Counted from the stretch's first letter, positions 1 to 23,449 are shown. The stretch: 32,000 bases of DNA from Microcystis aeruginosa NIES-843 (GCF_000010625.1 NC_010296.1:2310001-2342000), one strand, 5' to 3'. The notes: generated by a model not told the origin, from the sequence alone. Numbers and translations are program-made.

Positions 1-488
1 CAGAGTGGCCAGAAGGAGTCTATTTTCTTCCCTTGCTTTATCGCACGGCAATTATCGCTATTAATCAATTGCCTGTGACTGCTGAGACTCTTTGGTTAAG
101 ATTATTGGGACGGGGAAAAACGCAAAACCAAGCGGTGCGAGAATTGTTAGAATTACCTCAAGGTAATGCTTTCCGGGAAAATGTCCTGGAATTATTAATT
201 AGTTGGCGGGTTAGTATGGAAATAAATAACATCCTAGAAACTGAGGATAGAGAGGTGTTTATGACTTTATCTCAAACCTATCAGGAATGGAAGGAAGCAA
301 CTAAACGGGAAGGACTCGAACAAGGACTCGAACAAGGACTAGAGCGAGGACTAGAGCGAGGAAAACTAGAGGCTAAACTGGAATCTATTCCCCGTTTGCT
401 TGCTTTGGGTTTAAGTGTGGAACAAATCGCTCAAGCTTTGGATTTAGACTTAGAACAAGTCCGACAAGCTATTCAAGAAACTCCATGA
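1..488 (+). CDS. Array paralog copy 0 (5' end outside window): uncharacterised Rpn/YhgA-like (putative PD-(D/E)XK) family protein with repeat linker and HTH-like tail
   Basis: Frame is open from base 3 (EWPEGVYFLPLLYRT...), so track ORF 33..488 is only the tail of a longer gene. It aligns with residues ~129-end of the full copies at 7494 and 8387. Its TGA overlaps the next ATG (ATGA at 485-488). The family label is tentative. Confidence 0.85.
   Translation, partial: EWPEGVYFLPLLYRTAIIAINQLPVTAETLWLRLLGRGKTQNQAVRELLELPQGNAFRENVLELLISWRVSMEINNILETEDREVFMTLSQTYQEWKEATKREGLEQGLEQGLERGLERGKLEAKLESIPRLLALGLSVEQIAQALDLDLEQVRQAIQETP
312..383 (+). repeat. In-frame 12-nt tandem repeat, copy 0: (GGACTCGAACAA)x2 (GGACTAGAGCGA)x2 + GGAAAACTAGAG GCTAAACTGGAA
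   Basis: Read directly; encodes GLEQGLEQGLERGLERGKLEAKLE. Confidence 0.9.
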
Positions 489-1180
489 AACCCCATGACC
501 AATTTGCCAAAAATTACCTTGAACAATTACTTTCTCCCCTGGGAATCGTCGAAATCAGCAAAGAAGTCAGCGACGAAACTCGACAGATAGATTTATTTTT
601 TTCCCCCAATCCCGAACCCAACCCCAATTATCTGGGATTATTAGGCAGAATTGTCCTTAATACTGTCTTAATTGAACCCTATCGCAATCCTCCCAACCGT
701 AGCGAGATTCGTAATTGTTTAGCGAAACTTTTGACAATTTTAGCCGAACTGCAAAGACAAGCTAAACGGGAAAATCAGAGCTACAATGAAGACAATGCCC
801 CTCGTTTGTGGATTTTATCCCCTTCGGCTAGTCTGACTCTTGTAGAGAGTATTGGGGCAAAATTAGACCCAGATTGGCCAGAAGGAGTCTATTTTCTTCC
901 CTCGCTTTATCGCACGGCAATTATCGCTATTAATCAATTGCCTGTGACTGCTGAGACTCTTTGGTTAAGATTATTAGGAAGGGGAAAAACTCAAGACCAA
1001 GCGGTGCGAGAATTGTTAGAATTACCTCAAGGTAATGCTTTCCGGGAAAATGTCCTGGAATTATTAATTAGTTGGCGGGTTAGTATGGAAATAAATAACA
1101 TCCTAGAAACTGAAGATAGAGAGGTGTTTATGACCTTATCTCAAACCTATCAGGAATGGAAGGAAGCAACTAAACGGGAA

Positions 1181-1240
1181 GGACTCGAACAAGGACTAGA
1201 GCGAGGACTAGAGCGAGGAAAACTAGAGGCTAAACTGGAA
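1181..1240 (+). repeat. In-frame 12-nt tandem repeat, copy 1 (GLEQ GLER GLER GKLE AKLE)
   Basis: Read directly; five 12-nt units. Confidence 0.9.
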
Positions 1241-1270
1241 TCTATTCCCCGTTTGCTTGCTTTGGGTTTA

Positions 1271-2220
1271 TAGTTATTTCAAATAAGAACGAGACACTAG
1301 GCGACACAATAAGTACGAATAATTTCATCAAGGGGTGTCCCCACAGGAGCATACATTCTTGCCCTCTTTAATGCACTAAAATCATGTTCGATATCATTTA
1401 AATCAGGAGAGTATTTTGGCAAAAACACGACCTGATGACCTGCTTCCTCTACCAGTTGTTTAATGACTGTCTTCCGATGAATTGGTGCATTATCCATAAT
1501 TAATACTGATGTTATGGTTAGAGAGGGCAACAAATATAAAGATAACCACCCTTCAAAACCTTCGGCATTCAGGCTTCTCGTAAATACCATCGGTGCAATA
1601 AAGTCTTTTTTTCCCTTTCTTCTACCAGCGACAAGGTTCTCTCTTTTTCCTCGTTTTCCTTGTCTATCTCCAAAGACTTTCTTCCCTTTTTTTGACCAAG
1701 CATAAAAACAGGCTTGAAATTCTTCAAACCCTGACTCATCAATAAATACAAGGCTTTCACTTCCATATATTTTAATCAATTCTCTCAGCACTCTGTAGTA
1801 TTTCATTCTTTCTTCTCGGTTTCTTTCTCTATAACGAAGTTCCTTCTTTTTTCTGGTAACTTTCATTTTTTTTAAGGCATAGCAAATGGCACTTGGTCTC
1901 ACTCCAAATTTCTCGGCTCTGTCTCTTAATCTTGCCTCGGGATTTTCTTGGACATCTTTTGACAGTGCTTTCCAGTCCAGCTTTCTCTGACGGTGTTTTA
2001 CCTTTGTTGCTTCCAGTTTTTCCCTACCTAGCCATCTATATATCGTCGCTCTTCCTATATTAAATAGAGCGGCGGCTTTGGTTATGCTTCCCCCATTCTC
2101 TACATAATCGATTACTTTTTTTCTCAAGTCTAGGCTATAAGACATTTTTCTGTATGGGTTGCTCGTTTCTCTTGATTTTACCTTATTTTTCCCTCGTCTC
2201 ACACTTATTTGAAATGACTA
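1271..2220 (-). mobile_element. IS630-family insertion sequence (950 bp)
   Basis: Terminal inverted repeats are TAGTTATTTCAAATAAG (1271-1287) and the reverse complement of 2204-2220, TAGTCATTTCAAATAAG. They are flanked by TA (1269-1270) and TA (2221-2222), the TA target duplication typical of IS630/Tc1-mariner. The element contains a single DDE transposase gene. Confidence 0.9.
1297..2145 (-). CDS. IS630-family DDE transposase
   Basis: N-terminal HTH (MSYSLDLRKKVIDYVENGGSITKAAALFNIGRATIYRW). DDE motifs are FIDESG, IMDNAPIH and DLNDIEHDF, with 34 residues between the second D and the E. The track ORF starts at a GTG (2202); the ATG at 2145 (MSYSL...) is the more likely start. Confidence 0.9.
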   Translation of the reverse strand: MSYSLDLRKKVIDYVENGGSITKAAALFNIGRATIYRWLGREKLEATKVKHRQRKLDWKALSKDVQENPEARLRDRAEKFGVRPSAICYALKKMKVTRKKKELRYRERNREERMKYYRVLRELIKIYGSESLVFIDESGFEEFQACFYAWSKKGKKVFGDRQGKRGKRENLVAGRRKGKKDFIAPMVFTRSLNAEGFEGWLSLYLLPSLTITSVLIMDNAPIHRKTVIKQLVEEAGHQVVFLPKYSPDLNDIEHDFSALKRARMYAPVGTPLDEIIRTYCVA

Positions 2221-2293
2221 TAAGTGTGGAACAAATCGCTCAAGCTTTGGATTTAGACTTAGAACAAGTCCGACAAGCTATTCAAGAAACTCC

Positions 2294-3154
2294 ATGAAAC
2301 CCCATGACCAATTTGCCAAAAATTACCTTGAACAATTACTTTCTCCCCTGGGAATCGTCGAAATCAGCAAAGAAGTCAGCGACGAAACTCGACAGATAGA
2401 TTTATTTTTTTCCCCCAATCCCGAACCCAACCCCAATTATCTGGGATTATTAGGCAGAATTGTCCTTAATACTGTCTTAATTGAACCCTATCGCAATCCT
2501 CCCAACCGTAGCGAGATTCGTAATTGTTTAGCGAAACTTTTGACAATTTTAGCCGAACTGCAAAGACAAGCTAAACGGGAAAATCAGAGCTACAATGAAG
2601 ACAATGCCCCTCGTTTGTGGATTTTATCCCCTTCGGCTAGTCTGACTCTTGTAGAGAGTATTGGGGCAAAATTAGACCCAGATTGGCCAGAAGGAGTCTA
2701 TTTTCTTCCCTCGCTTTATCGCACGGCAATTATCGCTATTAATCAATTGCCTGTGACTGCTGAGACTCTTTGGTTAAGATTATTAGGAAGGGGAAAAACT
2801 CAAGACCAAGCGGTGCGAGAATTGTTAGAATTACCTCAAGGTAATGCTTTCCGGGAAAATGTCCTGGAATTATTAATTAGTTGGCGGGTTAGTATGGAAA
2901 TAAATAACATCCTAGAAACTGAAGATAGAGAGGTGTTTATGACCTTATCTCAAACCTATCAGGAATGGAAGGAAGCAACTAAACGGGAAGGACTCGAACA
3001 AGGACTAGAGCGAGGACTAGAGCGAGGAAAACTAGAGGCTAAACTGGAATCTATTCCCCGTTTGCTTGCTTTGGGTTTAAGTGTGGAACAAATCGCTCAA
3101 GCTTTGGATTTAGACTTAGAACAAGTCCGACAAGCTATTCAAGAAACTCCATGA
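2294..3154 (+). CDS. Array paralog copy 2 (intact, 286 aa)
   Basis: Full-length ORF. Its ATG overlaps the tail of copy 1 (ATGA at 2294-2297) and its TGA overlaps the ATG of copy 3 (3151-3154). Motifs: RQIDLFFSP, VLIEPYRNPP, GLEQGLERGLERGKLEAKLE linker, LLALGLSVEQIAQALDLDLEQVRQA tail. Confidence 0.9.
   Translation: MKPHDQFAKNYLEQLLSPLGIVEISKEVSDETRQIDLFFSPNPEPNPNYLGLLGRIVLNTVLIEPYRNPPNRSEIRNCLAKLLTILAELQRQAKRENQSYNEDNAPRLWILSPSASLTLVESIGAKLDPDWPEGVYFLPSLYRTAIIAINQLPVTAETLWLRLLGRGKTQDQAVRELLELPQGNAFRENVLELLISWRVSMEINNILETEDREVFMTLSQTYQEWKEATKREGLEQGLERGLERGKLEAKLESIPRLLALGLSVEQIAQALDLDLEQVRQAIQETP
2990..3049 (+). repeat. In-frame 12-nt tandem repeat, copy 2 (identical to copy 1)
   Basis: Read directly; five 12-nt units. 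Confidence 0.9.
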
Positions 3155-3969
3155 AACCCCATGACCAATTTGCCAAAAATTACCTTGAACAATTACTTTC
3201 TCCCCTGGGAGTCGTCGAAATCAGCAAAGAAGTCAGCGACGAAACTCGACAGATAGATTTATTTTTTTCCCCCAATCCCGAACCCAACCCCAATTATCTG
3301 GGATTATTAGGCAGAATTGTCCTTAATACTGTCTTAATTGAACCCTATCGCAATCCTCCCAACCGTAGCGAGATTCGTAATTGTTTAGCGAAACTTTTGA
3401 CGATTTTAGCCGAACTGCAAAGACAAGCTAAACGGGAAAATCAGAGCTACAATGAAGACAATGCCCCTCGTTTGTGGATTTTATCCCCTTCGGCTAGTCT
3501 GACTCTTGTAGAGAGTATTGGGGCAAAATTAGACCCAGATTGGCCAGAAGGAGTCTATTTTCTTCCCTCGCTTTATCGCACGGCAATTATCGCTATTAAT
3601 CAATTGCCTGTGACTGCTGAGACTCTTTGGTTAAGATTATTAGGAAGGGGAAAAACTCAAGACCAAGCGGTGCGAGAATTGTTAGAATTACCTCAAGGTA
3701 ATGCTTTCCGGGAAAATGTCCTGGAATTATTAATTAGTTGGCGGGTTAGTATGGAAATAAATAACATCCTAGAAACTGAAGATAGAGAGGTGTTTATGAC
3801 CTTATCTCAAACCTATCAGGAATGGAAGGAAGCAACTAAACGGGAAGGACGACGGGAAGGAAAACTGGAATCTATTCCCCGTTTGCTTGCTTTGGGTTTA
3901 AGTGTGGAACAAATCGCTCAAGCTTTGGATTTAGACTTAGAACAAGTCCGACAAGCTACGCAAGGGTAG
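3151..3969 (+). CDS. Array paralog copy 3 (272 aa, shortest linker, divergent C-terminal end RQATQG)
   Basis: Full-length ORF nearly identical to copy 2, but the GLE[QR] repeats are absent (REGRREGKLESIP). It ends with TAG at 3967-3969 and is not overlapped by a following paralog. Confidence 0.9.
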   Translation: MKPHDQFAKNYLEQLLSPLGVVEISKEVSDETRQIDLFFSPNPEPNPNYLGLLGRIVLNTVLIEPYRNPPNRSEIRNCLAKLLTILAELQRQAKRENQSYNEDNAPRLWILSPSASLTLVESIGAKLDPDWPEGVYFLPSLYRTAIIAINQLPVTAETLWLRLLGRGKTQDQAVRELLELPQGNAFRENVLELLISWRVSMEINNILETEDREVFMTLSQTYQEWKEATKREGRREGKLESIPRLLALGLSVEQIAQALDLDLEQVRQATQG

Positions 3970-3982
3970 AGAATTGATTTAA

Positions 3983-5995
3983 CCCACATTCCGCAGGTTG
4001 AAAAACACCAAGGAAAAGACAGAGAAAGTTGAGCAATCCACTAAGCATAAATACTCAAGAAAGTCTTGAGAGAGCTAAGTATAAATACTCAGACATCTAA
4101 GACGAAAAAGATGAGATAATAATTGAAGTCAACCGCTAATAGCTAGAGAAAAAACATGAAACAAGAAATCGAGGTAAAAAACTTAGATCACTTAGGGATA
4201 GTTGCGGGAATTATTGATGAATTAGGAATCGAAGATTTAGTCAATCAAGCATTAGGAACAGATAAGAGAGAGAAAATTAGTGCTGGCATAATTGTCAAAG
4301 CTATCATCCTAAATGGGTTGGGATTTGTCGCCAAACCTTTATATTTATTCCCCCAATTTTTTGCAGATAAACCGATAGAACACTTATTAGGGGAAGGAAT
4401 AAAAGCTGAAGAGATTAATGACGATAAAATCGGCAGGGTTATGGATGATTTATATGAATATTCTCTGGAAAGTCTTTGGACAAGTTTAGCAATAAATACG
4501 AGCAACAAATATGAAATAAAAACTAAATATAGCCATCTAGACTCTAGCTCCGTGTCTGTTCACGGAGAAGACAAAATCAACCCAAAGCAAGAGGGAGAGA
4601 ACCTAGAAGAAAACCGAGAAAATGTCATCGAAATTACTTACGGATATTCGCGAGATAAAAGACCTGATTTAAAGCAATTTATGCTGGATTTGATGGTAAG
4701 TAGTGATGGGGATGTTCCTTTACTAATGAGAACAGGTTCCGGGAATGAATCGGATAAAAACATTTTTCCCTCAATCATAAAAGCTTATGAAAAAAATCTA
4801 AATTTGTCGACAATATATGTAACCGATAGTGCCTTGTACACCGCCAAAAATCTTCATAGTTTAGGAGGAACAAAATGGTTAACTAGAGTTCCTTTTAGCC
4901 TAAAAAAGGCGAAAGAAATCGCAGAAAAAGCTAAAGAAGCTGAGTTTCAGTCAAGTGAAAAAAAAGGCTATAAATACCAAGAGAAACCAGTAAACTATCA
5001 GGGAATTAAGCAAAGATGGCTCATTGTAGAGAGTGCAGCTAGAAAAGATTCAGACTTAGAGCAGTTGGCTGATAAGTTAACAAAGGAAAGAGAAAAGATG
5101 GAAAAACAATTAAAAAATTGGCAGCAGAGAAAAAAGCTCGACCTAAATGAATTAAAACTGGAAGTAAAGAAATTTAATGAAAGCTTAAAATATTATCAGT
5201 TAGAAGAATTAAAATATCAAGAAAACCTTAATAACAAGAAAGAGAAAGTCTATAGCTGTCAAGGAACAATTGAAGAAAAAGCCGAAATCATTAAAGCCGA
5301 AACAGAAAGAGCAGGGAGATTTATTCTCGCCACTAATGTTCTCGACAGCGAACAACTATCTGCCGCGGAAATGCTTCATGAATATAAAGCACAACAATCT
5401 TGTGAACGAGGATTTAGATTTATCAAAGACCCCTTATTTCTCGCAGATACTGTCTTTGTAAAAAACCCCAAAAGGATAGAAACAATGGGGTTTTTAATGG
5501 GAGTATGCTTATTGGTGTATAGTCTGGGACAAAGAATGTTAAGAAGAGAATTGCAAAAAAGAGGTGAGAAAGTCAAAAATCAACTCGGCAAAGCCACAGA
5601 CAAACCAACTTTAAGATGGATATTTCAGGTTTTACAGGGGATTCATTTAGTCAGGATTCATGGTCAAAGCCATCTCAGTAACTTAACTGAGGAGATTCTT
5701 GATATTCTTCAATACTTTTCAATTTATTGCCAAAATTACTACCGAGTAAGTTGAGACATCAAATTGAGCAAATTGAGTTTAAGCCAATCCAAGAAAAACC
5801 TTTTTCCTCGAAAAGTGTCCGATAAATTAGGTCACTTTAGTTTAACTATGTCTAACTTGAGCGACCCTTGCTTCCCTCAAATTGTTCTTTGTGAAATCGG
5901 ATGTCAAAATTCTATAATCTCAACAAATTTTGTCGGTTTAATCAGTTTTTCTCGGTGGTGTTATGGCAACTTAATCATAAAGTGCGGAATGTGGG
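3983..5995 (+). mobile_element. IS1634-like (IS4 superfamily) insertion sequence, 2013 bp
   Basis: Perfect 13-bp terminal inverted repeats: CCCACATTCCGCA at 3983-3995 and its reverse complement at 5983-5995. The element is flanked by the direct repeat ATTTAA (3977-3982 and 5996-6001) and holds one long transposase ORF. Confidence 0.85.
4156..5754 (+). CDS. IS1634-family (IS4-like) DDE transposase, 532 aa
   Basis: The N-terminus KNLDHLGIVAGIIDELGIEDLVNQALG and the overall length and organisation match my recollection of cyanobacterial IS1634-type transposases. It has a central Lys/Glu-rich coiled segment and sits between the IRs described above. Confidence 0.8.
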   Translation: MKQEIEVKNLDHLGIVAGIIDELGIEDLVNQALGTDKREKISAGIIVKAIILNGLGFVAKPLYLFPQFFADKPIEHLLGEGIKAEEINDDKIGRVMDDLYEYSLESLWTSLAINTSNKYEIKTKYSHLDSSSVSVHGEDKINPKQEGENLEENRENVIEITYGYSRDKRPDLKQFMLDLMVSSDGDVPLLMRTGSGNESDKNIFPSIIKAYEKNLNLSTIYVTDSALYTAKNLHSLGGTKWLTRVPFSLKKAKEIAEKAKEAEFQSSEKKGYKYQEKPVNYQGIKQRWLIVESAARKDSDLEQLADKLTKEREKMEKQLKNWQQRKKLDLNELKLEVKKFNESLKYYQLEELKYQENLNNKKEKVYSCQGTIEEKAEIIKAETERAGRFILATNVLDSEQLSAAEMLHEYKAQQSCERGFRFIKDPLFLADTVFVKNPKRIETMGFLMGVCLLVYSLGQRMLRRELQKRGEKVKNQLGKATDKPTLRWIFQVLQGIHLVRIHGQSHLSNLTEEILDILQYFSIYCQNYYRVS

Positions 5996-6058
5996 ATTTA
6001 ACTATAATCTGAGTCAAAATCAATCAAGATTCTGGTTAAAACGCCGATTTAAGCATTT

Positions 6059-6496
6059 TTGTCCTTGAAAAAACCAATGCCCGATGAAAATAGTTTTGAG
6101 GAGTTAATTAACGAACTAAAGCTTAGAAATATTAAACACAATTCCCAAGATATTATTGCCATTACTCAATTAGACAACGGGCGGATAATCTTTTTAGAAA
6201 TCGGTAATTCTTCATCGGGTTTGGAACATATTCTTAATAAACATGGAGAAGATTTTCAGCGTCGAGGCATTGCGATTAATAATATTATTGATTTCTTGAT
6301 GAAAGCAATTACAATGGGTCAATTAATCGGCACTCAAGGAACGAGCAGAAGTATTTATAAAGTTGATTATCAAGGAGAAATTCAATACATTTCTATCGAT
6401 ATTGGTAGTAATGGTTATGTAGTTAGTGCGAATCTCACTCCCCGAAAACTCATCCAACGTTTCTTAGGAGAAGACCTTGATGAAAAGAAAAATTAA
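6059..6496 (+). CDS. Small toxin-like protein (possible BECR-type nuclease domain), family unassigned
   Basis: 139-145 aa ORF (TTG at 6059 or ATG at 6077; in-frame TAA at 6050 blocks extension). Motif SSGLEHILNKHGEDF followed by beta-rich YKVDYQGEIQYISIDIGSNGYVVSANLTP. It is followed 4 nt later by a small acidic ORF. The function is inferred, not recognised with certainty. Confidence 0.6.
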   Translation: MSLKKPMPDENSFEELINELKLRNIKHNSQDIIAITQLDNGRIIFLEIGNSSSGLEHILNKHGEDFQRRGIAINNIIDFLMKAITMGQLIGTQGTSRSIYKVDYQGEIQYISIDIGSNGYVVSANLTPRKLIQRFLGEDLDEKKN

Positions 6497-6500
6497 ACTA

Positions 6501-6839
6501 ATGGCAGAATATAACTATTCGCCTCTTTGGGATATGGAAACTGCTGATAACCTTAACTTAGATGAGTTACCTTTATCGAGTTCTATCCAACAGAAGTTAA
6601 GTAATTGGGCAGAGATTTATAATCAAATTATAAATTGGGATAATCCCGCCGATTCACATTTTTTTGATGCAGTAAGTCAAGACAATTTTGAGAGGGAAGG
6701 TGTCAATATTTGGCGGCAATTACAAGAGGAATTATCACCCAATTATCAAATATTTTACTTTAGTGAAAAACAGCAACGACTTTTGACTCCAGAAGATGCA
6801 AGTGAAGCGATCAGAGAAAAAGAGGTTAGATATAAATAG
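6501..6839 (+). CDS. Small acidic immunity-like protein
   Basis: ATG at 6501 lies 4 nt after the stop of the upstream ORF (the track start 6477 is a TTG inside that ORF). MAEYNYSPLWD...LPLSSSIQQKLSNWAEIYNQIINWDNPADS resembles small proteins I recall next to toxin domains. Assignment is tentative. Confidence 0.55.
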   Translation: MAEYNYSPLWDMETADNLNLDELPLSSSIQQKLSNWAEIYNQIINWDNPADSHFFDAVSQDNFEREGVNIWRQLQEELSPNYQIFYFSEKQQRLLTPEDASEAIREKEVRYK

Positions 6840-6884
6840 CCTCAAAACTAGATCGCTTTTATTGTCAAGTTTTTAGCTCATAGA

Positions 6885-7313
6885 TTATTTTGAGAAAATA
6901 AATCTTTTATGGACTGAATTAAGTTCATAATATTTTTTTCCTGTATTCGGATCGGTAACTATCTTCATGTTATTGTTATCGCAAGGCTTCCAATCAGATC
7001 CAGTTACTGATCCAAATATACCATCATATACAGCTACACATTGTCTTCCTTGGGCAGGAATGTAGCAATATATATCATGAATAAAAGACCCTGATATATT
7101 AGGTGCAATCGTAGTACCCGAGCCATTAAACTGACAAACAAATTCACGACCACGAGGAGCAAATTGAGCGATAATAAGGTGATCTTGCTCACTAATTTCG
7201 GCTGTGGCACTGGTCGCTATAGCAGTATATCCGATCGCTGTAGTTGCTACTAGAGAAAAGACCTGAAGGAGAGAATTGCATAAGCTTTTCTTCTCCCCCC
7301 CCCCATTTTTCAT
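6885..7313 (-). CDS. Secreted Cys-containing hypothetical protein
   Basis: MKNGGGEKKS + hydrophobic LLQVFSLVATTAIGYTAIATSATA|E looks like a signal peptide, and the mature part has 5 Cys. The track ORF starts at a TTG (7340); ATGs at 7331 and 7313 are alternatives. Confidence 0.65.
   Translation of the reverse strand: MKNGGGEKKSLCNSLLQVFSLVATTAIGYTAIATSATAEISEQDHLIIAQFAPRGREFVCQFNGSGTTIAPNISGSFIHDIYCYIPAQGRQCVAVYDGIFGSVTGSDWKPCDNNNMKIVTDPNTGKKYYELNSVHKRFIFSK
7295..7304 (-). repeat. G10 homopolymer (C10 on + strand) inside codons 3-6 of the secreted-protein gene
   Basis: + strand reads ttctCCCCCCCCCCattttt. On the coding strand it is AAT GGG GGG GGG GAG (N G G G E), immediately after the ATG at 7313. 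Confidence 0.9.
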
Positions 7314-7409
7314 AATTGTTGCTAATGTCATGATGCTCAAGGGAATTTATCGAAGACAATTGTAAGTTAACAAAACTGATTTTTATTTGTCAAGGGATTT
7401 CTGAAATAT

Positions 7410-7439
7410 CTGACATTTTTGTTAACATAAGTTTATAAA
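7410..7439 (+). promoter_or_regulatory. Candidate sigma70-type promoter for the second run of the array
   Basis: CTGACA (7410-7415), an 18-nt spacer, then TATAAA (7434-7439), about 55 nt upstream of the ATG at 7494. Pattern match only. Confidence 0.3.
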
Positions 7440-7493
7440 ACCATTCAAAAATCGCTCGATACAATTGAGAATTATCGATTAACTGCTCAGTCC

Positions 7494-8390
7494 ATGAAAC
7501 CCCATGACCAATTTGCCAAAAATTACCTTGAACAATTACTTTCTCCCCTGGGAACCGTCGAAATCAGCAAAGAAGTCAGCGACGAAACTCGACAGATAGA
7601 TTTATTTTTTTCCCCCAATCCCGAACCCAACCCCAATTATCTGGGATTATTCGGCAGAATTGTCCTTAATACTGTCTTAATTGAACCCTATCGCAATCCT
7701 CCCAACCGTAGCGAGATTCGTAATTGTTTAGCGAAACTTTTGACAATTTTAGCCGAACTGCAAAGACAAGCTAAACGGGAAAATCAGAGCTACAATGAAG
7801 ACAATGCCCCTCGTTTGTGGATTTTATCCCCTTCGGCTAGTCTGACTCTTTTAGAGAGTCTTGGGGCAAAATTAGACCCAGATTGGCCAGAAGGCGTCTA
7901 TTTTCTTCCCTCGCTTTATCGCACTGCAATTATCGCTATTAATCAATTGCCTGTGACTGCTGAGACTCTCTGGTTAAGATTATTGGGAAGGGGAAAAACG
8001 CAAAACCAAGCGGTGCGAGAATTGTTAGAATTACCTCAAGGTAATGCTTTCCGGGAAAATGTGCTGGAATTATTGATTAGTTGGCGGGTTAGTATGGAAA
8101 TAAATAACATCCTAGAAACTGAGGATAGAGAGGTGTTTATGACTTTATCTCAAACCTATCAGGAATGGAAGGAAGCAACTAAACGGGAAGGACGACAGGA
8201 AGGACTAGAGCGAGGACTCGAACAAGGACTAGAGCGAGGACTAGAGCGAGGACTCGAACAAGGAAAACTAGAGGCTAAACTGGAATCTATTCCCCGTTTG
8301 CTTGCTTTGGGTTTAAGTGTGGAACAAATCGCTCAAGCTTTGGATTTAGACTTAGAACAGGTCCGACGAGCTATTCAAGAAACCCCATGA
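7494..8390 (+). CDS. Array paralog copy 4 (298 aa, longest linker)
   Basis: Full-length ORF with its own upstream non-coding region. The linker is GRQE-GLERGLEQGLERGLERGLEQ-GKLEAKLE. Its TGA overlaps the ATG of copy 5 (8387-8390). Confidence 0.9.
   Translation: MKPHDQFAKNYLEQLLSPLGTVEISKEVSDETRQIDLFFSPNPEPNPNYLGLFGRIVLNTVLIEPYRNPPNRSEIRNCLAKLLTILAELQRQAKRENQSYNEDNAPRLWILSPSASLTLLESLGAKLDPDWPEGVYFLPSLYRTAIIAINQLPVTAETLWLRLLGRGKTQNQAVRELLELPQGNAFRENVLELLISWRVSMEINNILETEDREVFMTLSQTYQEWKEATKREGRQEGLERGLEQGLERGLERGLEQGKLEAKLESIPRLLALGLSVEQIAQALDLDLEQVRRAIQETP
8202..8285 (+). repeat. In-frame 12-nt tandem repeat, copy 4 (GLER GLEQ GLER GLER GLEQ GKLE AKLE)
   Basis: Read directly; seven 12-nt units, starting at codon 237 of the gene. 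Confidence 0.9.
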
Positions 8391-9241
8391 AACCCCATGA
8401 CCAATTTGCCAAAAATTACCTTGAACAATTACTTTCTCCCTTGGGAACCGTCGAAATCAGCAAAGAAGTCAGCGATGAAACCCGACAGATAGATGTATTT
8501 TTTTCCCCCAATCCCGAACCCAACCCCGATTATCTGGGATTATTAGGCAGAATTGTCCTTAATACTGTCTTAATTGAACCCTATCGCAATCCTCCCAACC
8601 GTAGCGAGATTCGTAATTGTTTAGCGAAACTTTTGGCGATTTTAGCCGAACTGCAAAGACAAGCTAAACGGGAAAATCAGAGCTACAATGAAAAGAATGC
8701 CCCTCGTTTGTGGATTTTATCCCCTTCCGCTGGTATCACTGTTTTAGAAGGATTTGGGGCAAAATTAGACCCAGAGTGGCCAGAAGGAGTCTATTTTCTT
8801 CCCTTGCTTTATCGCACGGCAATTATCGCTATTAATCAATTGCCTGTGACTGCTGAGACTCTTTGGTTAAGATTATTGGGACGGGGAAAAACGCAAAACC
8901 AAGCGGTGCGAGAATTGTTAGAATTACCTCAAGGTAATGCTTTCCGGGAAAATGTGCTGGAATTATTGATTAGTTGGCGGGTTAGTATGGAAATAAATAA
9001 CATCCTAGAAACTGAGGATAGAGAGGTGTTTATGACTTTATCTCAAACCTATCAGGAATGGAAGGAAGCAACTAAACGGGAAGGACGACAGGAAGGAAAA
9101 CTGGAAGGAAAACTAGAAGGAAAACTAGAAGGAAAACTGGAATCTATTCCCCGTTTGCTGGCTTTGGGTTTAAGTGTGGAACAAATCGCTCAAGCTTTGG
9201 ATTTAGACTTAGAGCAGGTCCGACAAGCGGCGCGAGAGTAA
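8387..9241 (+). CDS. Array paralog copy 5 (284 aa, GKLE-type linker, last copy)
   Basis: Full-length ORF. The linker is GRQE-(GKLE)x4. It is the most diverged of the close copies (IDVFF, NPDYL, SAGITVLEGFG, LPLLYRT) and ends RQAARE-TAA. Confidence 0.9.
   Translation: MKPHDQFAKNYLEQLLSPLGTVEISKEVSDETRQIDVFFSPNPEPNPDYLGLLGRIVLNTVLIEPYRNPPNRSEIRNCLAKLLAILAELQRQAKRENQSYNEKNAPRLWILSPSAGITVLEGFGAKLDPEWPEGVYFLPLLYRTAIIAINQLPVTAETLWLRLLGRGKTQNQAVRELLELPQGNAFRENVLELLISWRVSMEINNILETEDREVFMTLSQTYQEWKEATKREGRQEGKLEGKLEGKLEGKLESIPRLLALGLSVEQIAQALDLDLEQVRQAARE
9095..9142 (+). repeat. In-frame 12-nt tandem repeat, copy 5 ((GGAAAACTRGAA)x4 = GKLE x4)
   Basis: Read directly; starts at codon 237, the same position as in copy 4. 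Confidence 0.9.
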
Positions 9242-9312
9242 AGGTGGAGAGTTAAAACGCAAAAATGCCACAATGGATAAAATAGGCATTTTCTGACTAA
9301 CTGACATCTTCT

Positions 9313-11937
9313 ATGAGTAACCACCTAAGCGGAAGCGAGATTCGCCAGCGATTTTTAGACTTTTTTGCGGCCAGAAACCATAAAATTCTCCCTAGTGCCT
9401 CCCTAGTCCCAGAAGACCCCACCGTTTTGCTGACTATTGCGGGAATGCTCCCTTTTAAACCGATTTTCTTAGGGCAAAAGACCCCAGAATTTCCCCGCGC
9501 TACCACTTCTCAAAAATGTATTCGCACCAACGATATCGAAAATGTCGGCCGGACTGCTAGACATCATACTTTTTTTGAGATGTTGGGCAATTTTAGCTTT
9601 GGTGATTATTTTAAAGAACAAGCGATCGCCTGGGCCTGGGAATTGTCCACAGAAGTTTTTAACCTTCCCCCCGAAAGATTAGTCGTTAGTGTCTTTAAAG
9701 AGGATGAGGAAGCTTTCGCTATCTGGCGCGATAAAATCGGTATTCCTGCCCATCGTATCCAAAAAATGGGCGAAGAGGATAACTTTTGGGTATCGGGTCC
9801 CACGGGTCCCTGTGGTCCCTGTTCGGAAATTTACTACGATTTTCACCCCGAATTAGGGGATAAAACCATCGATTTAGAGGATGATAGCCGTTTTATCGAG
9901 TTTTATAACCTCGTCTTCATGCAGTATAACCGCGACGCGGACGGCAATCTGACACCCCTAGCGAATAAAAATATCGATACGGGGATGGGTTTGGAACGGA
10001 TGGCGCAAATCCTGCAAAAAGTCGCCAATAACTACGAAACTGACCTAATTTTCCCGATTGTCGCCGAAGCGGCCCGGTTAGCAGCGATAGACTACCAGAA
10101 AGCGGACGAAAAAACGAAAGTTTCCCTAAAAGTCATCGGCGATCATGTGCGTTCGGTAGTACACATGATAGCGGATGGTATCTCAGCATCGAATACTGAC
10201 AGAGGTTACGTCCTGCGTCGTCTGATTCGGAGAGTAGTACGGCACGGGCGTTTAATCGGTATTGAAGGTCAATTTATCACCAAAGTGGCGGAAGTTGCGA
10301 TCGCTCTTTCCGAGTCCGTCTATGGCAATGTTCGGGAACGAGAAACGGTGATCAAGGCAGAATTAGAGCGAGAGGAAGCGAGATTTTTAGAAACCCTAGA
10401 AAGAGGCGAGAAACTGCTCGAATCGATTCTAGAAAAAGAAAAAAGCCAGATTTCGGGAGTCGATGCTTTTACCCTTTATGATACCTATGGCTTCCCCCTG
10501 GAACTCACTCAAGAAATCGCCGAGGAGCAGGGTTTAAGCGTCGATACGGCGGGCTTTGAGCAGGAAATGAAAAAACAGCAGCAAAGATCAAAAGCCGCCC
10601 ACGAAACCATAGATTTGACGGTACAGGGCAGTTTAGATAAGCTGGCAGAACATATTCACCCGACGGAATTTCTCGGTTATACGGATTTGCAAGCAACCGC
10701 AACAGTAACGGCGGTTTTAGTCGCCGGTAAAACGGTGGAATCGGCCGCAGCAGGCACTGAGGTGCAGGTAGTTCTCGATCGAACCCCTTTTTATGCCGAA
10801 TCGGGTGGACAAATCGGTGATAAGGGTTATTTAACCGGCGATAATCTGCTTATCCGCATTGAGGATGTGCAGAAAGAATCGGGGATTTTTATCCATTTTG
10901 GTCGGATTGAGCGGGGAATTGTCACCACCGGCGATACAATTAATGCTCAGATCGATCGCTCCTGTCGTCGTCGCGCTCAAGCTAATCATACCGCCACCCA
11001 TCTGCTACAATCGGCCCTGAAAAAGCTTGTCGATGGGGGGATTTCCCAAGCAGGTTCCCTCGTCAGTTTCGATCGCCTCCGTTTTGATTTTAACTGTCCT
11101 CGTCCCCTGACTAGCTCTGAATTGCAACAGGTGGAAGAACAGATTAACACTTGGATTGCCGAAGCGCATGACACCCAGATAGCGGTGATGGGATTGGAAG
11201 AAGCGAAGCAGAAGGGAGCTATTGCCATGTTTGGCGAGAAATACGGCTCAGAAGTGCGAGTTATCGATATTCCTAGCGTTTCTATGGAATTATGCGGGGG
11301 AACTCACGTTAAAAATACCGCCGAGATCGGTTTATTTAAAATCATCTCCGAGACGGGAATCGCCGCGGGAATTCGTCGCATCGAAGCGGTGGCTGGCCCT
11401 GCCGTGTTAGCATACCTGAATGAACGGGATCAGGTGGTGCGGGCTCTGTGCGATCGCTTTAAGGTCAAACCTCTGGAAATTCCCGATCGCATTACGGCCC
11501 TACAATCGGAGTTAAAGGGGACACAAAAGCAGTTAGAAGCGGTTAAACAGGAGTTGGCCCTAAATAAATCGGATGCTTTGCTATCTCAAGCCGAATCTAT
11601 CGGCGAATTTAAGCTTTTAGTCGCTTCTTTGGGCGATATTGATGCTAATGCTTTGATGGCTGCAGCCGAAAGACTACAGCAAAAATTAGGGGAAGGGGCG
11701 GTGATTTTGGCCTCGACTCCCGCAGCTGATAAAGTGAGTTTAGTGGCCGCTTTTAGTCCCCGGGTGATTAAAGATAAGGGTTTACAAGCGGGTAAATTTA
11801 TCGGTGCGATCGCTAAAATCTGCGCTGGTGGTGGTGGTGGTCGTCCCAATTTAGCTCAAGCTGGGGGACGGGATGCTAGTAAGTTAAGCGAAGCTTTAGC
11901 TAAGGCCAAAAGTCAGTTAACTAGCAGTTTACAATAG
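9313..11937 (+). CDS. alaS: Alanine--tRNA ligase
   Basis: 874 aa. The N-terminus [45 protein letters not shown], the editing-domain HTATHLL and CGGTH motifs, and the C-terminal DHHA1-like [14 protein letters not shown] are typical of AlaRS. Confidence 0.97.
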
Positions 11938-11942
11938 TTGCT

Positions 11943-11972
11943 AAGGTGGGCATTTTGTCCACCTTTAAAAAT
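11943..11972 (+). terminator. Candidate intrinsic terminator after alaS
   Basis: Stem AAGGTGG (11943-11949) / CCACCTT (11959-11965) with a 9-nt loop, followed by a TTTAAAAATT tail. The T tract is weak. Confidence 0.4.
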
Positions 11973-12069
11973 TAGTTATTCTCTCGGTGTGATTGGTAAA
12001 AATAATATGGAACTACTGATCAAGAATTTGGGTCAATTAGAAATAATAATCAAACCATAGATTTAATGG

Positions 12070-12345
12070 TTATTGGTGCGCTTCCATATAGGCTCGGAGC
12101 AACTCATTGATCTGTGTTTGATAGCCTTTTCCCTGAGATTGAAACCACTCGAATACATCATTATCAATGGAGAGAGTAACTTGAGCTTTGTCCTTGGTTA
12201 CGGGGACACTTCGCCGCACTACGGATTTAGCAAACATTTCAGGTGTAATTTCTGGACAGTCTGACAAATCAATATCTTCATCGCTCATTGCGTCTAATCG
12301 TTGCCAATCAGTTTGAGAGTTGCTTAAAGTAGGTTCGTTGTTCAT
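12070..12345 (-). CDS. brnA: BrnA-family antitoxin
   Basis: MNNEPTLSNSQTDWQRLDAMSDEDIDLSDCPEITPEMF...VTLSIDNDVFEWFQSQGKGYQTQINELLRAYM matches the BrnA pattern, and the gene lies downstream of a BrnT gene. The start is taken as the ATG at 12345; the track ORF is longer. Confidence 0.8.
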   Translation of the reverse strand: MNNEPTLSNSQTDWQRLDAMSDEDIDLSDCPEITPEMFAKSVVRRSVPVTKDKAQVTLSIDNDVFEWFQSQGKGYQTQINELLRAYMEAHQ

Positions 12346-12583
12346 ATTTCGTTGCCTTTCTTGCAGAAATAATACGAGTGTAATCCTCACGTTCAGTATG
12401 GACAACGGCAATAATTCGCCCTTTTAGTAAACCCAATGTAACAAAACGCTGCTCTCCATAATCGAGACGATCATCTTCAACCGTTAAAATGTCCCCATCG
12501 AAAACGGCGGGAACATCGGCAAAATCTATACCGTGTTTACGAAGATTAGTAAGTCGTTTTGCTTCATCCCATCGGTATTCCAT
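12308..12583 (-). CDS. brnT: BrnT-family toxin (DUF497 ribonuclease)
   Basis: MEYRWDEAKRLTNLRKHGIDFADVPAVFDGD...RFVTLGLLKGRIIAVVHTEREDYTRIISARKATKYE is the typical BrnT signature. The start is taken as the ATG at 12583. Confidence 0.85.
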   Translation of the reverse strand: MEYRWDEAKRLTNLRKHGIDFADVPAVFDGDILTVEDDRLDYGEQRFVTLGLLKGRIIAVVHTEREDYTRIISARKATKYEQRTYFKQLSN

Positions 12584-12810
12584 AACTGAACGACTGTTAC
12601 AACTTTCAATTATATTCATTATAATCCTATGCGGTATGAGTTTTGTTTAAAACCGCAGGATTGGCCGTTTTTCAGTATCTATCGGTTTATTGCTGAAGTT
12701 TTTTATCCGTCTGATTGGGACGAGACAACAATTCTCGACAGTATTGGCAATAAAGAATGCAGGATATGTTAGCGTAATGTAACGCATCGCAATATTGATT
12801 AAGGTGTTTT

Positions 12811-14156: not shown

Positions 14157-14545
14157 GTGGTTGTTTCTCTATTTCGAGATAAAAAGGATAGTTTATTTTA
14201 TGTCTTATCTCAACACCCAACGCAACCGAAGTTTAGCAACTTAAGGAAAAAGTTAGTAAAATTCCCCCAATCCCTTATCCTGCCTAACTTCCAGTCCCTC
14301 ACCCCTCCCGCAAAAATCCTTAACTTGGGAAAAATTCCCAACTTTACCAACTTAAGCCCAAACTTTGTCAGAATATCCTGACAATTTATCCACTCTCCCA
14401 ACCCAAAACTTGGCGTTGCTGATTTGAGATATGAATCTTCTCTTGTGGGATTTTTAAAACCTAGACCCAAACCAACCCCTGGATACGATGCACAGTTGGC
14501 ATTCATACCTTGATTCAGCAACGTCTCTGTGGGCAAAAATTGCTA

Positions 14546-15862
14546 TTAACTACCCGGAGGGGGAATTACAGGAATTTCGATCCCGTCCGGCGCTAAGGGG
14601 GGAGGTGTGGGAGTTAGTCTTGGCTGGTAAACAGGTTCAGGTGTACTAACTAAGGGAATATTTTCCAGCACGGGAAGACGGGGAGTGATGGGTTGGGAAA
14701 ACATCGCTTGAATTGCCGCTTTTCTGGTTTCTGGAGGTTCCAAAGCTTGCTGCCAGAGACTTTCATAAAAGAAGAAAATCACCCCTAAACCCCGTTGACG
14801 AGCAGCCAATACCTTTTCTTCAATAAAGGGTAGGGCAATCGGTCGATTGCGTAAACCGGTTAAAACTCCCACACCGGTGGGGATAGTTTGCTGGGTTTCC
14901 TGAATTTCGGGACGCTCTATTTGCTTGAGAAAACTGGGCAGATCGGGACGATAAACCTGTACAATTAACTCGTCGACTAATCCTTGCCGCACCCAACCGA
15001 GCCAATCCTGTAAATGACCATTATAGGCGAATTCGTAGGGATTAGGGGCGATCGAAAGCAGTATATTCGGTTTAATTGCCTCAATTGATTCTTTGAGATT
15101 AGCCAGAAAAGCGGTGATTTTATCGGCCCGCCATTTTGTCCATTCGGGATCCCGGGGGTTAGCCGGGGGCGTTTTTTCGGTTTCCTGTTGATAAAGGGCG
15201 ATAGTATAGGGATCATAGCCGAATTCGTTGGGTAAACTCAGATGATCGTCGAATTGGATGCCGTTAATATCGTATTGTCCCACCACTTCCAAGACTAACT
15301 CCCGCAGAAAATTCTGCACCTCGGGACGGAAAGGATTCAACCACACCACCTCACCGGCTGCCCCTACCCAAGTGGTCCCTCCGTCGCGTTTTTGGGTTAA
15401 CCAGTCCTGATGTTTTAAGGCTAATTCGGAGGTGGGAGGAGCCATAAATCCGAATTCAAACCAAGGAATGACCAATAATCCCCTGCCACGGGTTTGTTCC
15501 ACCAATTCTGCCAAGATATCTTGTCCCTGCGCTCCCGTAGGCACAAAAGGCTGTATTCCTTCCCGTTGAGCGATCGCACTAGGATAGAGAGCATAACCGG
15601 AATTCCAAACCACGGGATAGATAGCATTAAAATTAAGATTAACTAATTGCTCGATCGCCTGTTGTCGTTTATCCCTATCCATCAGCATCGCAGTATCGTT
15701 GGTAGTGATCCAAACACCGCGGATATCGCCATCCCGACTTTGAGAGAAAGCAGCAGAAAAATAGCCTAATAGTAGGACTATTAGAAAAGATGCTAAGAAT
15801 AGTAGTATGGGTAGCTTTTTAAGAATTTGCCGCCAAATGCTGGTCGGAATTAGAAAAGTCAT
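14546..15862 (-). CDS. Glycoside hydrolase-like family 10 (GHL10/DUF187, YngK-type) protein with Pro-rich C-terminus
   Basis: N-terminal signal/anchor, then IRGVWITTNDTAMLMDRDKRQQAIEQLVNLNFNAIYPVVWNSGYALYPS and VIPWFEFGF, typical of GHL10. The C-terminal tail is PEPVYQPRLTPTPPPLAPDGIEIPVIPPPGS. Confidence 0.8.
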   Translation of the reverse strand: MTFLIPTSIWRQILKKLPILLFLASFLIVLLLGYFSAAFSQSRDGDIRGVWITTNDTAMLMDRDKRQQAIEQLVNLNFNAIYPVVWNSGYALYPSAIAQREGIQPFVPTGAQGQDILAELVEQTRGRGLLVIPWFEFGFMAPPTSELALKHQDWLTQKRDGGTTWVGAAGEVVWLNPFRPEVQNFLRELVLEVVGQYDINGIQFDDHLSLPNEFGYDPYTIALYQQETEKTPPANPRDPEWTKWRADKITAFLANLKESIEAIKPNILLSIAPNPYEFAYNGHLQDWLGWVRQGLVDELIVQVYRPDLPSFLKQIERPEIQETQQTIPTGVGVLTGLRNRPIALPFIEEKVLAARQRGLGVIFFFYESLWQQALEPPETRKAAIQAMFSQPITPRLPVLENIPLVSTPEPVYQPRLTPTPPPLAPDGIEIPVIPPPGS

Positions 15863-17534: not shown

Positions 17535-19298
17535 TTAATAATTAGAGCGACTTTGTTTAAGATTAAGAAACTTGGTAAATTCTGGTTGAAAAAGTAGCTT
17601 AATTGTGCCGGTGGGACCGTTACGGTGTTTAGTAATAATTACTTCGGCCACACCTCGATCGGGACTATCGGGGTTATAATATTCATCTCGGTATAACATC
17701 ATAATTAAATCCGCATCCTGTTCGATACTATTATGGACGATGATATTATTGGCAATAAAATTATGCAATTTATCTACTGTTAAATCATACACTTCTGTCT
17801 CTCCATCCGCTTGAATTGCCATAACTTCATCCCAATTAAACCTTAGGTCTGAATTACTCAGAGAGCGAGGTAAAGCGATATAATTACCGATATTTAATTC
17901 ATCTAATCTTTGCCAACCGTGGACAGTCAAAAATTTATGATTGGCTGTAGCTCTAATCGTGCGACCTAAACGAGTTGTTAATCGAAAAACTGGCTTAAAT
18001 CCTGTGGAAAAGACCTTAGTTACCAGTGCTTTTTCTAATTTCATTGTTTCCTCATTAAGAGCAAAAACCGTAAAATTAGAGCAATTCACTAACTGACAAA
18101 TTGGCACTTTAGCACGAGGAGCGGCTAACTCAACTAAACTATCACCCGCTAAACATCCCGACTCGCGTAAATCGGACATCATCGGTCTTTTATTATTGCG
18201 AGATTCCACGGCGCGACTTAACTGAGAAAGAGCAATTACCGGAGCATGAATTTCTCTCGCTAAACCCTTAAGACTGCGGGTAATTTTAGAAAGTTCCTGA
18301 ACACGATTATCACCTCCCCCTTCCATTAATTGCAGATAATCGATTAAAACTAATCCCATTTGCCCCTTTTTTTCTGCCTGTAAACGCCGCACTTGGGAAC
18401 GCATTTGAATTACACTTAAATTGGCACTATCATCGATATATATGGGCAAATTTAATAACTTTTCTAGTCCCCCAAGAACCTTCTCTAAATCATTTTGTCC
18501 CAAACGGCCCGAGCGAATCCGATTACTTTCGATTTTAGCCTCATTTGATAACAAACGTTGGGCTAATTGTTCCTTGGACATCTCCAAACTAAAGACAGCC
18601 ACAGGTAAATTCTGTTGAGCGATATTATAGGCAATATTAAGAGCAAAAGAAGTTTTTCCCATGGAAGGCCTACCCGCGATAATAACTAAATCCGAGGGTT
18701 GTAAACCACTGGTCATCGCATCGAGATCATAAAATTGAGTTTCGATACCAGGTAGAGTGGTCGTCTCCTGCATTTTCTCAATTTCGTTAAAAGTTTCAAT
18801 TAAAGTATCCCCCAGAAAAATTAAACCCTCCTGGGGTCGTTTTTGGGTGAGACGAAAAATCTTTTGTTCCGATTCATCGAAAACATTTTCTAATTCTAGC
18901 GTCGTATCCCTGGCTAACTCAATAATTTCTCCCCCGGTGGAAATTAACTGACGACGCATATATTTATCCATCACTAATTCAGCATAGCGATCGATGTTGG
19001 CAGCCGAGACAGTGCGCTCAATTAATTGTAACAATCGCGGCATTCCCCCGATTTCTTCCAGCAGATAGTTATCCTGTAACCAGCTGCTAACCGTCATTAA
19101 ATCCGTCGGTTTTCCCTTCCCTTGTAAAGCAAGCGCCGCACGATAAATATCTTGATGGGTTTTCACATAGAAAGCTTCTGGAATTAAAAAATCACTGATT
19201 CTACCTAACGCTTTTGGATCTAGTAAAATACCACCTAAGATAGATTCTTCCGCTTCAATATTTTGGGGGGGGAGGGACTGATCGCTAATCATTGTCAA
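17535..19298 (-). CDS. dnaB: Replicative DNA helicase DnaB (intein-containing precursor)
   Basis: LPPQNIEAEESILGGILLDP, Walker A GRPSMGKTSFALN, LVLIDYLQLM and ALSQLSRAVESR are DnaB hallmarks. The track start at 19298 is a TTG; an ATG at 19292 is the alternative. Confidence 0.95.
   Translation of the reverse strand: MTMISDQSLPPQNIEAEESILGGILLDPKALGRISDFLIPEAFYVKTHQDIYRAALALQGKGKPTDLMTVSSWLQDNYLLEEIGGMPRLLQLIERTVSAANIDRYAELVMDKYMRRQLISTGGEIIELARDTTLELENVFDESEQKIFRLTQKRPQEGLIFLGDTLIETFNEIEKMQETTTLPGIETQFYDLDAMTSGLQPSDLVIIAGRPSMGKTSFALNIAYNIAQQNLPVAVFSLEMSKEQLAQRLLSNEAKIESNRIRSGRLGQNDLEKVLGGLEKLLNLPIYIDDSANLSVIQMRSQVRRLQAEKKGQMGLVLIDYLQLMEGGGDNRVQELSKITRSLKGLAREIHAPVIALSQLSRAVESRNNKRPMMSDLRESGCLAGDSLVELAAPRAKVPICQLVNCSNFTVFALNEETMKLEKALVTKVFSTGFKPVFRLTTRLGRTIRATANHKFLTVHGWQRLDELNIGNYIALPRSLSNSDLRFNWDEVMAIQADGETEVYDLTVDKLHNFIANNIIVHNSIEQDADLIMMLYRDEYYNPDSPDRGVAEVIITKHRNGPTGTIKLLFQPEFTKFLNLKQSRSNY
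17730..18155 (-). other. DnaB mini-intein (142 aa, no homing-endonuclease domain)
   Basis: Inserted between RESG and SIEQDADL. It starts with Cys (CLAGDSLV, block A), has TANHKF (block B), and ends with VYDLTV...HNFIANNIIVHN followed by a +1 Ser. Codon positions were checked: TGT at 18155-18153 and AAT at 17732-17730. Confidence 0.9.
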
Positions 19299-23443: not shown

Positions 23444-23449
23444 TCCTGA

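Follow-up and report, generated by a model that had tools for sequence, protein, structure and literature searches.

A strain-variable array of ATGA-coupled, Rpn-like genes upstream of alaS in Microcystis aeruginosa

A 32,000-nt stretch of Microcystis aeruginosa NIES-843 DNA (NC_010296.1:2310001-2342000; hereafter the window) carries six plus-strand copies of one gene, confirmed with an open reading frame (ORF) listing and a repeat finder and arranged in two runs 5' of alaS. Judged by sequence, the copies resemble a divergent cyanobacterial offshoot of the Rpn nuclease/antitoxin phage-defence family, in which one rpn gene yields both a toxic full-length nuclease, RpnL, and, from an internal start, the small antitoxin RpnS (PMC10400941). 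All four internal junctions (485, 2294, 3151, and 8387) read ...CC ATGA AA..., with the TGA of the upstream gene inside the ATG-A of the downstream one, and each unit of the array measures precisely one gene less 4 nt. The original prediction, made from the DNA alone, had placed six copies and four ATGA-coupled junctions at these positions; the ORF listing, the repeat finder, and the junction sequences bear it out.

The left run opens with the 3' part of copy 1 (<1-488), whose start lies beyond the left edge of the window; it contains an internal RpnS-like ORF from 261 and five repeat units at 315-374, and its counterpart in the Microcystis chromosome AP019314.1 is a 290-aa copy. Copy 2 (485-2297) is disrupted by an insertion sequence (IS): its ORFs are 485-1273 and 2223-2297, its gene parts 485-1270 and 2223-2297, its internal Met is encoded at 1130, and four repeat units occupy 1184-1231. 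Copy 3 (2294-3154) is intact and encodes 286 aa, with a predicted nuclease domain at about residues 1-165, the internal Met216 at 2939, and a four-unit repeat block at 2993-3040 (LEQG LERG LERG KLEA). Copy 4 (3151-3969; 272 aa), with its internal Met at 3796 and a single repeat unit at 3850-3861, closes the left run and ends in ...QATQG-TAG without overlap. The right run consists of copy 5 (7494-8390; 298 aa; internal Met at 8139; seven repeat units at 8193-8276) and copy 6 (8387-9241; 284 aa; internal Met at 9032; four units, RQEG KLEG KLEG KLEG, at 9086-9133). Copy 6 is the last; it ends in ...QAARE-TAA and adjoins alaS (9313-11937). Directly 5' of copy 5 lies a plus-strand leader of 35 nt (7459-7493), identical to the 35 nt directly 5' of the first full copy at three other loci (L001, which is CP134413.1, L003, and L004). 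In AP019314.1 the corresponding stretch, ahead of the left run's first copy, belongs to an alignment of 95.6% identity.

The element in the tail of copy 2 belongs to the IS630 family and occupies 1271-2220 on the minus strand, with a transposase ORF at 1297-2202 that matches Pfam HTH_Tnp_IS630 and DDE_3 as well as the NCBIfam IS630 model. It is flanked by a TA target duplication (1269-1270 and 2221-2222) and bounded by terminal inverted repeats, TAGT(T/C)ATTTCAAATAAG. Excising it in silico restores an intact copy 2 of 861 nt.

The array is genuine and polymorphic in copy number. Window positions 2221-12000 are 99.9% identical to AP019314.1, where four coupled copies (294, 290, 286, and 272 aa) are followed by the same intervening segment, a further pair of copies (298 and 284 aa), and alaS. 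The further copy upstream in that chromosome agrees with the prediction that the array runs past the left edge. Relative to this 4+2 arrangement the window holds an additional 286-aa copy, the IS630-hit one; the window strain thus probably has 5+2 copies in total, the first of them beyond the edge. Microcystis supplies the closest proteins, which are 95-97% identical. At the same site there are two coupled copies in CP134413.1 and three in NZ_CP169647.1; in NZ_CP191408.1 the arrays occupy two sites, split or relocated. These three records and AP019314.1, which are chromosomes or complete genomes by title, or Mb-sized, thus hold 2-6 ATGA-coupled copies at the same site 5' of alaS. Comparing the locus between strains, as the original prediction had suggested, therefore gives a copy number of 2, 3, 4+2, or at least 4+2 at a constant site. 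At 65 loci from other cyanobacteria homologues are single, and within this sample tight arrays are peculiar to Microcystis. That the tandem copies are an assembly artefact is scarcely credible: several draft and metagenome-assembled genome (MAG) contigs do terminate within copies, but the copies are told apart by their own substitutions and repeat blocks, one carries an IS, and four independent assemblies agree on coupled copies at one site. A 945-bp contig labelled Nocardioides allogilvus (L008, NZ_PZYX01000042.1) also carries gene copies of 89-98% identity, including a coupled junction; these are almost certainly Microcystis DNA contaminating an actinobacterial assembly.

The fixed site bears on the idea that the unit is a selfish mobile element amplifying in place. 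Some members of the protein cluster are annotated 'putative transposase/invertase (TIGR01784 family)', PHROG 3300, which the copies match, is labelled 'transposase', and copy number does vary. The units, however, lack the terminal inverted repeats and target duplications that the IS630 element in copy 2 possesses, the 4-nt overlap of abutting units leaves no room for ends, and the chromosomal site 5' of alaS does not change among the strains examined. Autonomous transposases of the PD-(D/E)XK type are not known, and for rpn Zhong et al. conclude the same (PMC10400941). We consider a mobile element very improbable. Among the three explanations offered at the outset, amplification of a defence nuclease comes closest to what we find, whereas a selfishly transposing unit finds no support, given the missing ends and the fixed site.

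What sets the copies apart is concentrated in the repeats. Between aligned 300-nt blocks the copies are 97-100% identical, and to that extent the near-identity first noted by eye holds; it does not extend to the 12-nt repeats, whose number and type are the main difference among copies. Copies 1-6 have 5, 4, 4, 1, 7, and 4 units, which encode LEQG, LERG, KLEG, or RQEG, the set in copy 6 being of different composition. Otherwise, the codon alignment contains a few scattered substitutions and, in copy 6, clustered amino-acid changes at residues 116-123. Copies 1 and 2, once thought identical over 261 aa, are not: partial copy 1 differs from copy 2 in eight codons and by one extra repeat unit. The identical pair is copies 2 and 3 (~262 aa), with no differences in 690 nt compared and no variable column in the whole-gene codon alignment. 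Variants are distributed as a mosaic, with partial copy 1 having some in common with copies 5 and 6, a pattern that suggests gene conversion. Along the first three copies of AP019314.1 the count falls by one LEQG unit per copy (6, 5, and 4 units, counting KLEA). Across the copies and strains listed, identical tails occur only in the duplicate pair of the window. Ratios of nonsynonymous to synonymous substitution (dN/dS) of 0.10-0.40 across paralogues and strains, calculated over the first 230 codons, argue that the genes are under purifying selection.

Such a pattern might arise in Rpn-like genes whose array has no function of its own, if copy and repeat numbers drift by unequal crossing-over and slippage in a repeat- and IS-rich Microcystis genome and extra copies are neutral or a matter of dosage. 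Drift is the main alternative to a functional array. It accommodates a copy number free to vary among near-identical strains, the identity of the extra pair in the window, the inactivation of one copy by an IS, the split or relocated arrays of NZ_CP191408.1, and left-run successive copies that differ by single LEQG units, as slippage would yield. It accounts poorly for tails that are all different among the listed copies except in the duplicate pair, one of which is IS-disrupted, and for purifying selection. In E. coli, moreover, one added repeat abolishes neutralisation and cross-neutralisation (PMC10400941), which also speaks against repeat number being without consequence. We regard drift as unlikely.

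The C-terminal tail links the copies to Rpn. Residues 194-280 align with positions 196-272 of the NCBIfam model TIGR01784 (E=2.2e-13), whose name is 'Rpn family recombination-promoting nuclease/putative transposase'. PHROG 3300, matched full-length by E. coli RpnA (1.4e-90), matches residues 216-281 of copy 3 with profile positions 243-310 (E=2.3e-5). When the family was compared with an RpnA alignment in hhalign, the match (E=2e-5) fell exactly around the ...E..M-T-(L/I)... motif at the internal Met. By these matches the tail is homologous to the RpnS antitoxin module of Rpn proteins. We propose that it forms a three-helix, helix-turn-helix (HTH)-like oligomerisation module with the repeats in its long first helix; weak matches to HTH_23, DUF433, and Sigma70_r4 were also recorded. 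An HTH-like tail had been anticipated, and this part of the original prediction stands; the family to which it was assigned, described as uncharacterised, is not an orphan, given the homology of its tail to Rpn.

RpnL and RpnS share a region of hypervariable four-residue repeats located 8-20 residues past the internal start (PMC10400941), and a commentary proposes that variation in these repeats insulates paralogues from each other (PMC10400984). Here, the repeats start 17 residues after Met216, inside the reported range. The window copies have 1-7 units, and longer blocks occur in other strains, with tails of up to 91 aa. Many Microcystis copies bear the database name 'flagellar assembly protein H'. 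We rejected a FliH identity, with scores of 15-30 bits against cut-offs of 180-293 and alignments confined to the repeat region; on this sequence comparison the name is spurious and due to the repeat block. Separately, a stand-alone 64-aa gene on the minus strand of CP134413.1 (L001 3362-3556), 6.5 kb from the array there, consists of an Rpn-type tail only (MFSLSDLKQTKVYQEALEEGREEGELAAKLASIPRLLALELNFEQIAQALELEIEQVRQATQRE) and has a strong GGAG Shine-Dalgarno (SD) motif upstream; another lies at ~3390-3494 of L004. The 64-aa gene looks like a free antitoxin of the RpnSs type, of which E. coli YpaA is an example.

The internal start of Rpn genes also has a counterpart. In a 30-member alignment (48-95% identity) at least 90% of the sequences keep Met216, which aligns, by both BLASTP and hhalign, with RpnA Met244, where RpnA-S has been shown to start (PMC10400941) and where PDB 7TH0 (RpnA-S, residues 244-292) begins. 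In the window the DNA 5' of this codon is GAGAGGTGTTT-ATG. Of 62 distinct family genes, 56 have an SD-like core (GGAG, GAGG, or AGGA) within -16 to -5; in control windows from the same genes the frequency is 11%. Codon choice is skewed as well. At the Glu codon three before the Met, and at the preceding codon where this is Glu, GAG and GAA stand at 58:6 vs 512:1442 elsewhere (Fisher p=2e-26), and CAG is likewise preferred to CAA (p=7e-5); the sequences are related, and these p-values overstate independence. A bias of this kind at synonymous sites is the prediction of a conserved ribosome-binding site. A small protein is probably translated from Met216, with predicted lengths of 75, 71, 71, 57, 83, and 69 aa for copies 1-6.

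Structure prediction and conserved residues both bear on the N-terminal domain. The AlphaFold (AF2) models are confident, with a pLDDT of 82 for the whole protein and 90.2 for residues 1-195, and their core is arranged alpha-beta-beta-(alpha)-beta-alpha-beta. The top Foldseek matches in the PDB are weak (E>=6e-3) but nearly all PD-(D/E)XK nucleases: EndoMS/NucS, R2 endonuclease, Bse634I, Can2, PfoI, EcoO109I, Avs3, SgrAI, and LmuA. Four residues, D5 (PHDQFAK), E31, E64 (LIEPYRN), and R76, do not vary in the sampled family, in which D36 (RQIDLFF) reaches at least 90% conservation; the Asp of IDLFF and the Glu of IEPYR, which the original prediction had singled out, are thus conserved in the family alignment. 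In RpnA, D11A, D63A, and E82A abolish activity, whereas Q84A is still toxic and SOS-inducing (Kingston et al. 2017, PMC5350276).

Several results weigh against reading the copies as Rpn-like nucleases. Residues 1-195 of 18 members have no Pfam match even at E<=10, and TIGR01784 and PHROG 3300 align with the C-terminal part only. The whole-protein TIGR01784 score, 50.7 bits, is just below the curated cut-off of 52.1, and PF27070, the companion of canonical Rpn proteins, was not matched in the Pfam scans. PADLOC has no match to the copies either, a null that says little because RpnA itself has no PADLOC model and is not matched there. In hhalign comparisons with enterobacterial Rpn, the N-terminal match covers the PHD..FK motif alone and is not significant (E=0.012), nor is a permissive full-length colinear alignment built from 101 family sequences (E=0.06). 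That alignment places D5, D36, E64, and R76 on RpnA D11, D63, E82, and R94, and it places Y/F66 on Q84. The Q/K position of the (D/E)xK motif is Tyr or Phe here; the loss is not disqualifying, because RpnA Q84A stays toxic and SOS-inducing. No Foldseek match reached E<=0.001, and TM-scores were ~0.3-0.37. The promoter scan, finally, was uninformative, with 25 sites vs 20 expected from shuffled sequence.

Other searches extend this picture. Neither a profile search nor a tail-only search found a sequence relative in the PDB, and phmmer did not reach 7TH0. BLASTP against RpnA was not significant; it aligned the two internal Mets nonetheless. Foldseek against a viral structure library returned weak, mostly unnamed matches. 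An exhaustive profile search recovered 1,848 clusters (50% identity) at E<=0.001 and 1,184 at E<=1e-10, the best 150 matches listed all having E<1e-44. No canonical Rpn gene that might serve as a bridging sequence turned up among 81 cyanobacterial loci. Taken from the model, a PD-(D/E)XK nuclease is a likely identity for the N-terminal domain, not a proven one; by sequence, membership of that domain in the Rpn family is not established. The PD-(D/E)XK core first proposed for the N-terminus is thus recovered as a predicted fold, with weak matches and no match to a Pfam or Rpn model.

The same data could describe a catalytically dead PD-(D/E)XK relic that acts in DNA binding, regulation, or as a scaffold through its HTH-like tail. 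The Tyr or Phe at the K/Q position, the absence of a significant sequence match to any nuclease family, the weak fold matches, and the tail's faint resemblance to HTH_23, DUF433, and Sigma70_r4 would all fit. Yet D5, E31, E64, and R76 do not vary in the sampled family, and at least 90% of it keeps D36; D5, D36, E64, and R76 are colinear with RpnA residues whose mutation abolishes activity, while the residue that is replaced corresponds to the one RpnA can lose and remain toxic. A conserved internal start of the antitoxin type would, moreover, be pointless without a toxin. A dead domain seems to us improbable.

With moderate confidence, we favour a reading in which every copy is a toxin-antitoxin 'gene within a gene' of an Rpn-like kind and the copies form insulated pairs in an array grown in tandem. 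The full-length product (272-298 aa) would combine an N-terminal PD-(D/E)XK-type DNA nuclease, with D5, D36, E64, and R76 as likely active-site residues, and a C-terminal HTH-like oligomerisation module. The small protein (57-83 aa), initiated at Met216 with its SD-like motif a few nucleotides upstream, would act as the antitoxin: it would bind the tail of its own large partner and keep the toxic nuclease inactive until release, for example upon phage infection. Repeat number would determine which small protein fits which large one, and all-different repeat blocks would make the array a set of mutually insulated nuclease/antitoxin pairs. Each run is probably a single operon, in which large proteins may be produced by termination-reinitiation at ATGA and small proteins from their own ribosome-binding sites. 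Tandem duplication and unequal crossing-over between near-identical units would let the array grow and shrink, and gene conversion would homogenise and shuffle the nuclease part. The original prediction knew of no described role for a coupled array of such genes. Rpn tail homology now places the family at least in part within a characterised system, an outcome that the prediction itself had named as refuting it; arrays formed by tandem direct duplication (PMC10400941) and the idea of insulated paralogues (PMC10400984) have been published for that system.

A more specific version can be put forward tentatively, and we think it possible though on balance doubtful: the array may be a built-in specificity repertoire, one coupled operon of insulated pairs whose repeat numbers step by one unit along the array, as in the first three copies of AP019314.1, and whose nuclease belongs to a large PD-(D/E)XK clade (~1,850 clusters) that lacks a model and works without the canonical Q/K residue, with new specificities arising by unequal crossing-over within and between units. 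If so, it would offer a natural test bed for repeat-length coding of pairing and for cyanophage range. More generally, if the Rpn model applies, one fixed Microcystis locus would hold a strain-variable battery of insulated abortive-infection nucleases, with a bearing on cyanophage-host dynamics and strain typing. The array is in effect a natural experiment on matters left by the E. coli work, namely what repeat number means, how repeats and copies expand, and whether different copies see different phages.

The Rpn toxin-antitoxin kind, the repeat hallmark, the internal antitoxin, tandem arrays, and the idea of insulated paralogues are already published, and the conceptual gain here is incremental for that reason. 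New are a diverged N-terminal clade without a model and with Tyr or Phe in place of Q/K; units joined precisely by ATGA overlaps, with zero intergenic DNA; a clear within-genome series of differing repeat numbers at a fixed site with strain-level copy variation, in a bloom-forming cyanobacterium; and the finding that the name 'flagellar assembly protein H' is spurious. The literature on this name in Microcystis and later work on Rpn yielded nothing specific to these arrays. There is also an annotation gap, since the N-domain of a large cyanobacterial family of ~1,850 clusters (50% identity) goes undetected by the Pfam, NCBIfam, PHROG, and PADLOC models tried here.

Some further features lie in or near the array. 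A terminator-like hairpin (TTCCGGGAAAATGTCCTGGAA followed by a T-rich tail) is present on the plus strand inside the coding region of copies 1-4 (171-191, 1040-1060, 2849-2869, and 3706-3726), and every copy has an antisense promoter-like site (GTCACA-17-GATAAT; minus strand, 79-51, 948-920, 2757-2729, 3614-3586, 7957-7929, and 8850-8822); overall, promoter and terminator site counts are no better than in shuffled sequence. The ~3.5-kb segment between the left and right runs (3970-7458) contains an IS1634-family transposase, two small genes that form a pair, and another ORF. The transposase (4156-5754, plus strand), the first gene past the left run, is intact at 532 aa and matches NCBIfam NF033559 (E=1e-116) as well as Pfam DUF4277 and DDE_Tnp_1; in the 99.9%-identical AP019314.1 this stretch is annotated as two shorter genes. 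Of the pair, both on the plus strand, the 145-aa ORF (6059-6496) weakly resembles the toxin-type nuclease domain PBECR1, below threshold (E=7e-4, 20.4 bits vs a cut-off of 27.6), and the overlapping 120-aa ORF (6477-6839) has no match; together they are possibly a toxin/immunity pair. The remaining ORF (6885-7340, minus strand; 151 aa) has a hydrophobic N-terminus and several Cys residues, and it matches no family of Pfam, NCBIfam, PHROGs, or PADLOC. Window positions 5995-7423 match the MAG W13-11 (L007) at 91% over 1442 nt, between a partial and a full copy, and the 151-aa ORF is kept together with the neighbouring pair there.

Beyond the array, two overlapping small ORFs lie 3' of alaS (12070-12619, minus strand). 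In CP134413.1 a 98%-identical stretch (L001 ~14543-15056) contains genes with BrnA_antitoxin and BrnT_toxin domains, which identifies the two as a BrnT/BrnA-type toxin-antitoxin pair; AP019314.1 differs after alaS, with an AAA_15/AAA_21 ATPase. A 587-aa ORF for a DnaB-like replicative helicase (17535-19298, minus strand) has, by eye, an apparent mini-intein (...ESGCLAGDSLVEL ... NNIIVHNSIEQDAD...). Intergenic tandem repeat arrays of 7-8 nt, at 19414-19474, 21498-21621, 23389-23453, and 27660-27971, have the units TCCCCACT/TCCCCATC, ACCCTATC, and TCAGTTA/TCAGGAG, some with inverted copies several kb apart, and resemble typical cyanobacterial short tandem repeats. A 95-aa ORF (25076-25363, minus strand) is HigB-type toxin-like by eye. 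Another ATGA-coupled pair of small ORFs (28024-28341 and 28338-28700, plus strand) stands directly 5' of 28700-29392, a queC-like gene. No RNA gene was found in the window by Rfam or tRNA scans.

How the copies relate to known systems differs from one system to another. With FliH they have in common only a Glu/Gly/Leu-rich repetitive helix. Stand-alone RpnS genes often carry a DUF4351 annotation (PMC10400941), and DUF4351 (PF14261) is not matched by the window copies; 17 of 30 sampled family members match it below threshold, with a best E of 5.8e-4, and other members of the same N-terminal family have genuine DUF4351 tails (46-66 bits vs a cut-off of 25). The tail of the window copies is instead of the TIGR01784 type (...LLALGLSVEQIAQALDLDLEQV...), unlike DUF4351. 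Among solved structures, the PD-(D/E)XK nucleases EndoMS/NucS, Bse634I, Can2/Card1, R2, and LmuA come closest to the N-terminal domain as predicted. With this model they have in common an alpha-beta-beta-beta-alpha-beta core with acidic residues on strands 2 and 3; the likeness is at the level of the fold, with 8-15% identity and different domain contexts and partners.

Set beside the YhgA-like Rpn recombination-promoting nucleases (COG5464; PMC5350276, PMC10400941), the copies differ in an N-terminal domain that PF04754, the N-terminal part of TIGR01784, and PHROG 3300 fail to recognise, in a spacing of 31 rather than 52 residues between the first and second acidic positions, and in the Tyr or Phe at the position of Q84. 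ATGA fusion without intergenic DNA is a feature of the window copies, and it does not appear in the available sections of the description of rpn arrays (PMC10400941). The resemblances run through the whole protein and the locus: a size of ~290 aa, the N-terminal 'PHD..FK' motif, an order of conserved D, E, and R that is colinear in the permissive alignment, a homologous three-helix C-terminal tail, an internal Met in the same position with a ribosome-binding motif upstream, hypervariable four-residue repeats, here 17 residues after that Met, and a strain-variable copy number in arrays that grow by tandem duplication and have no IS-type ends.

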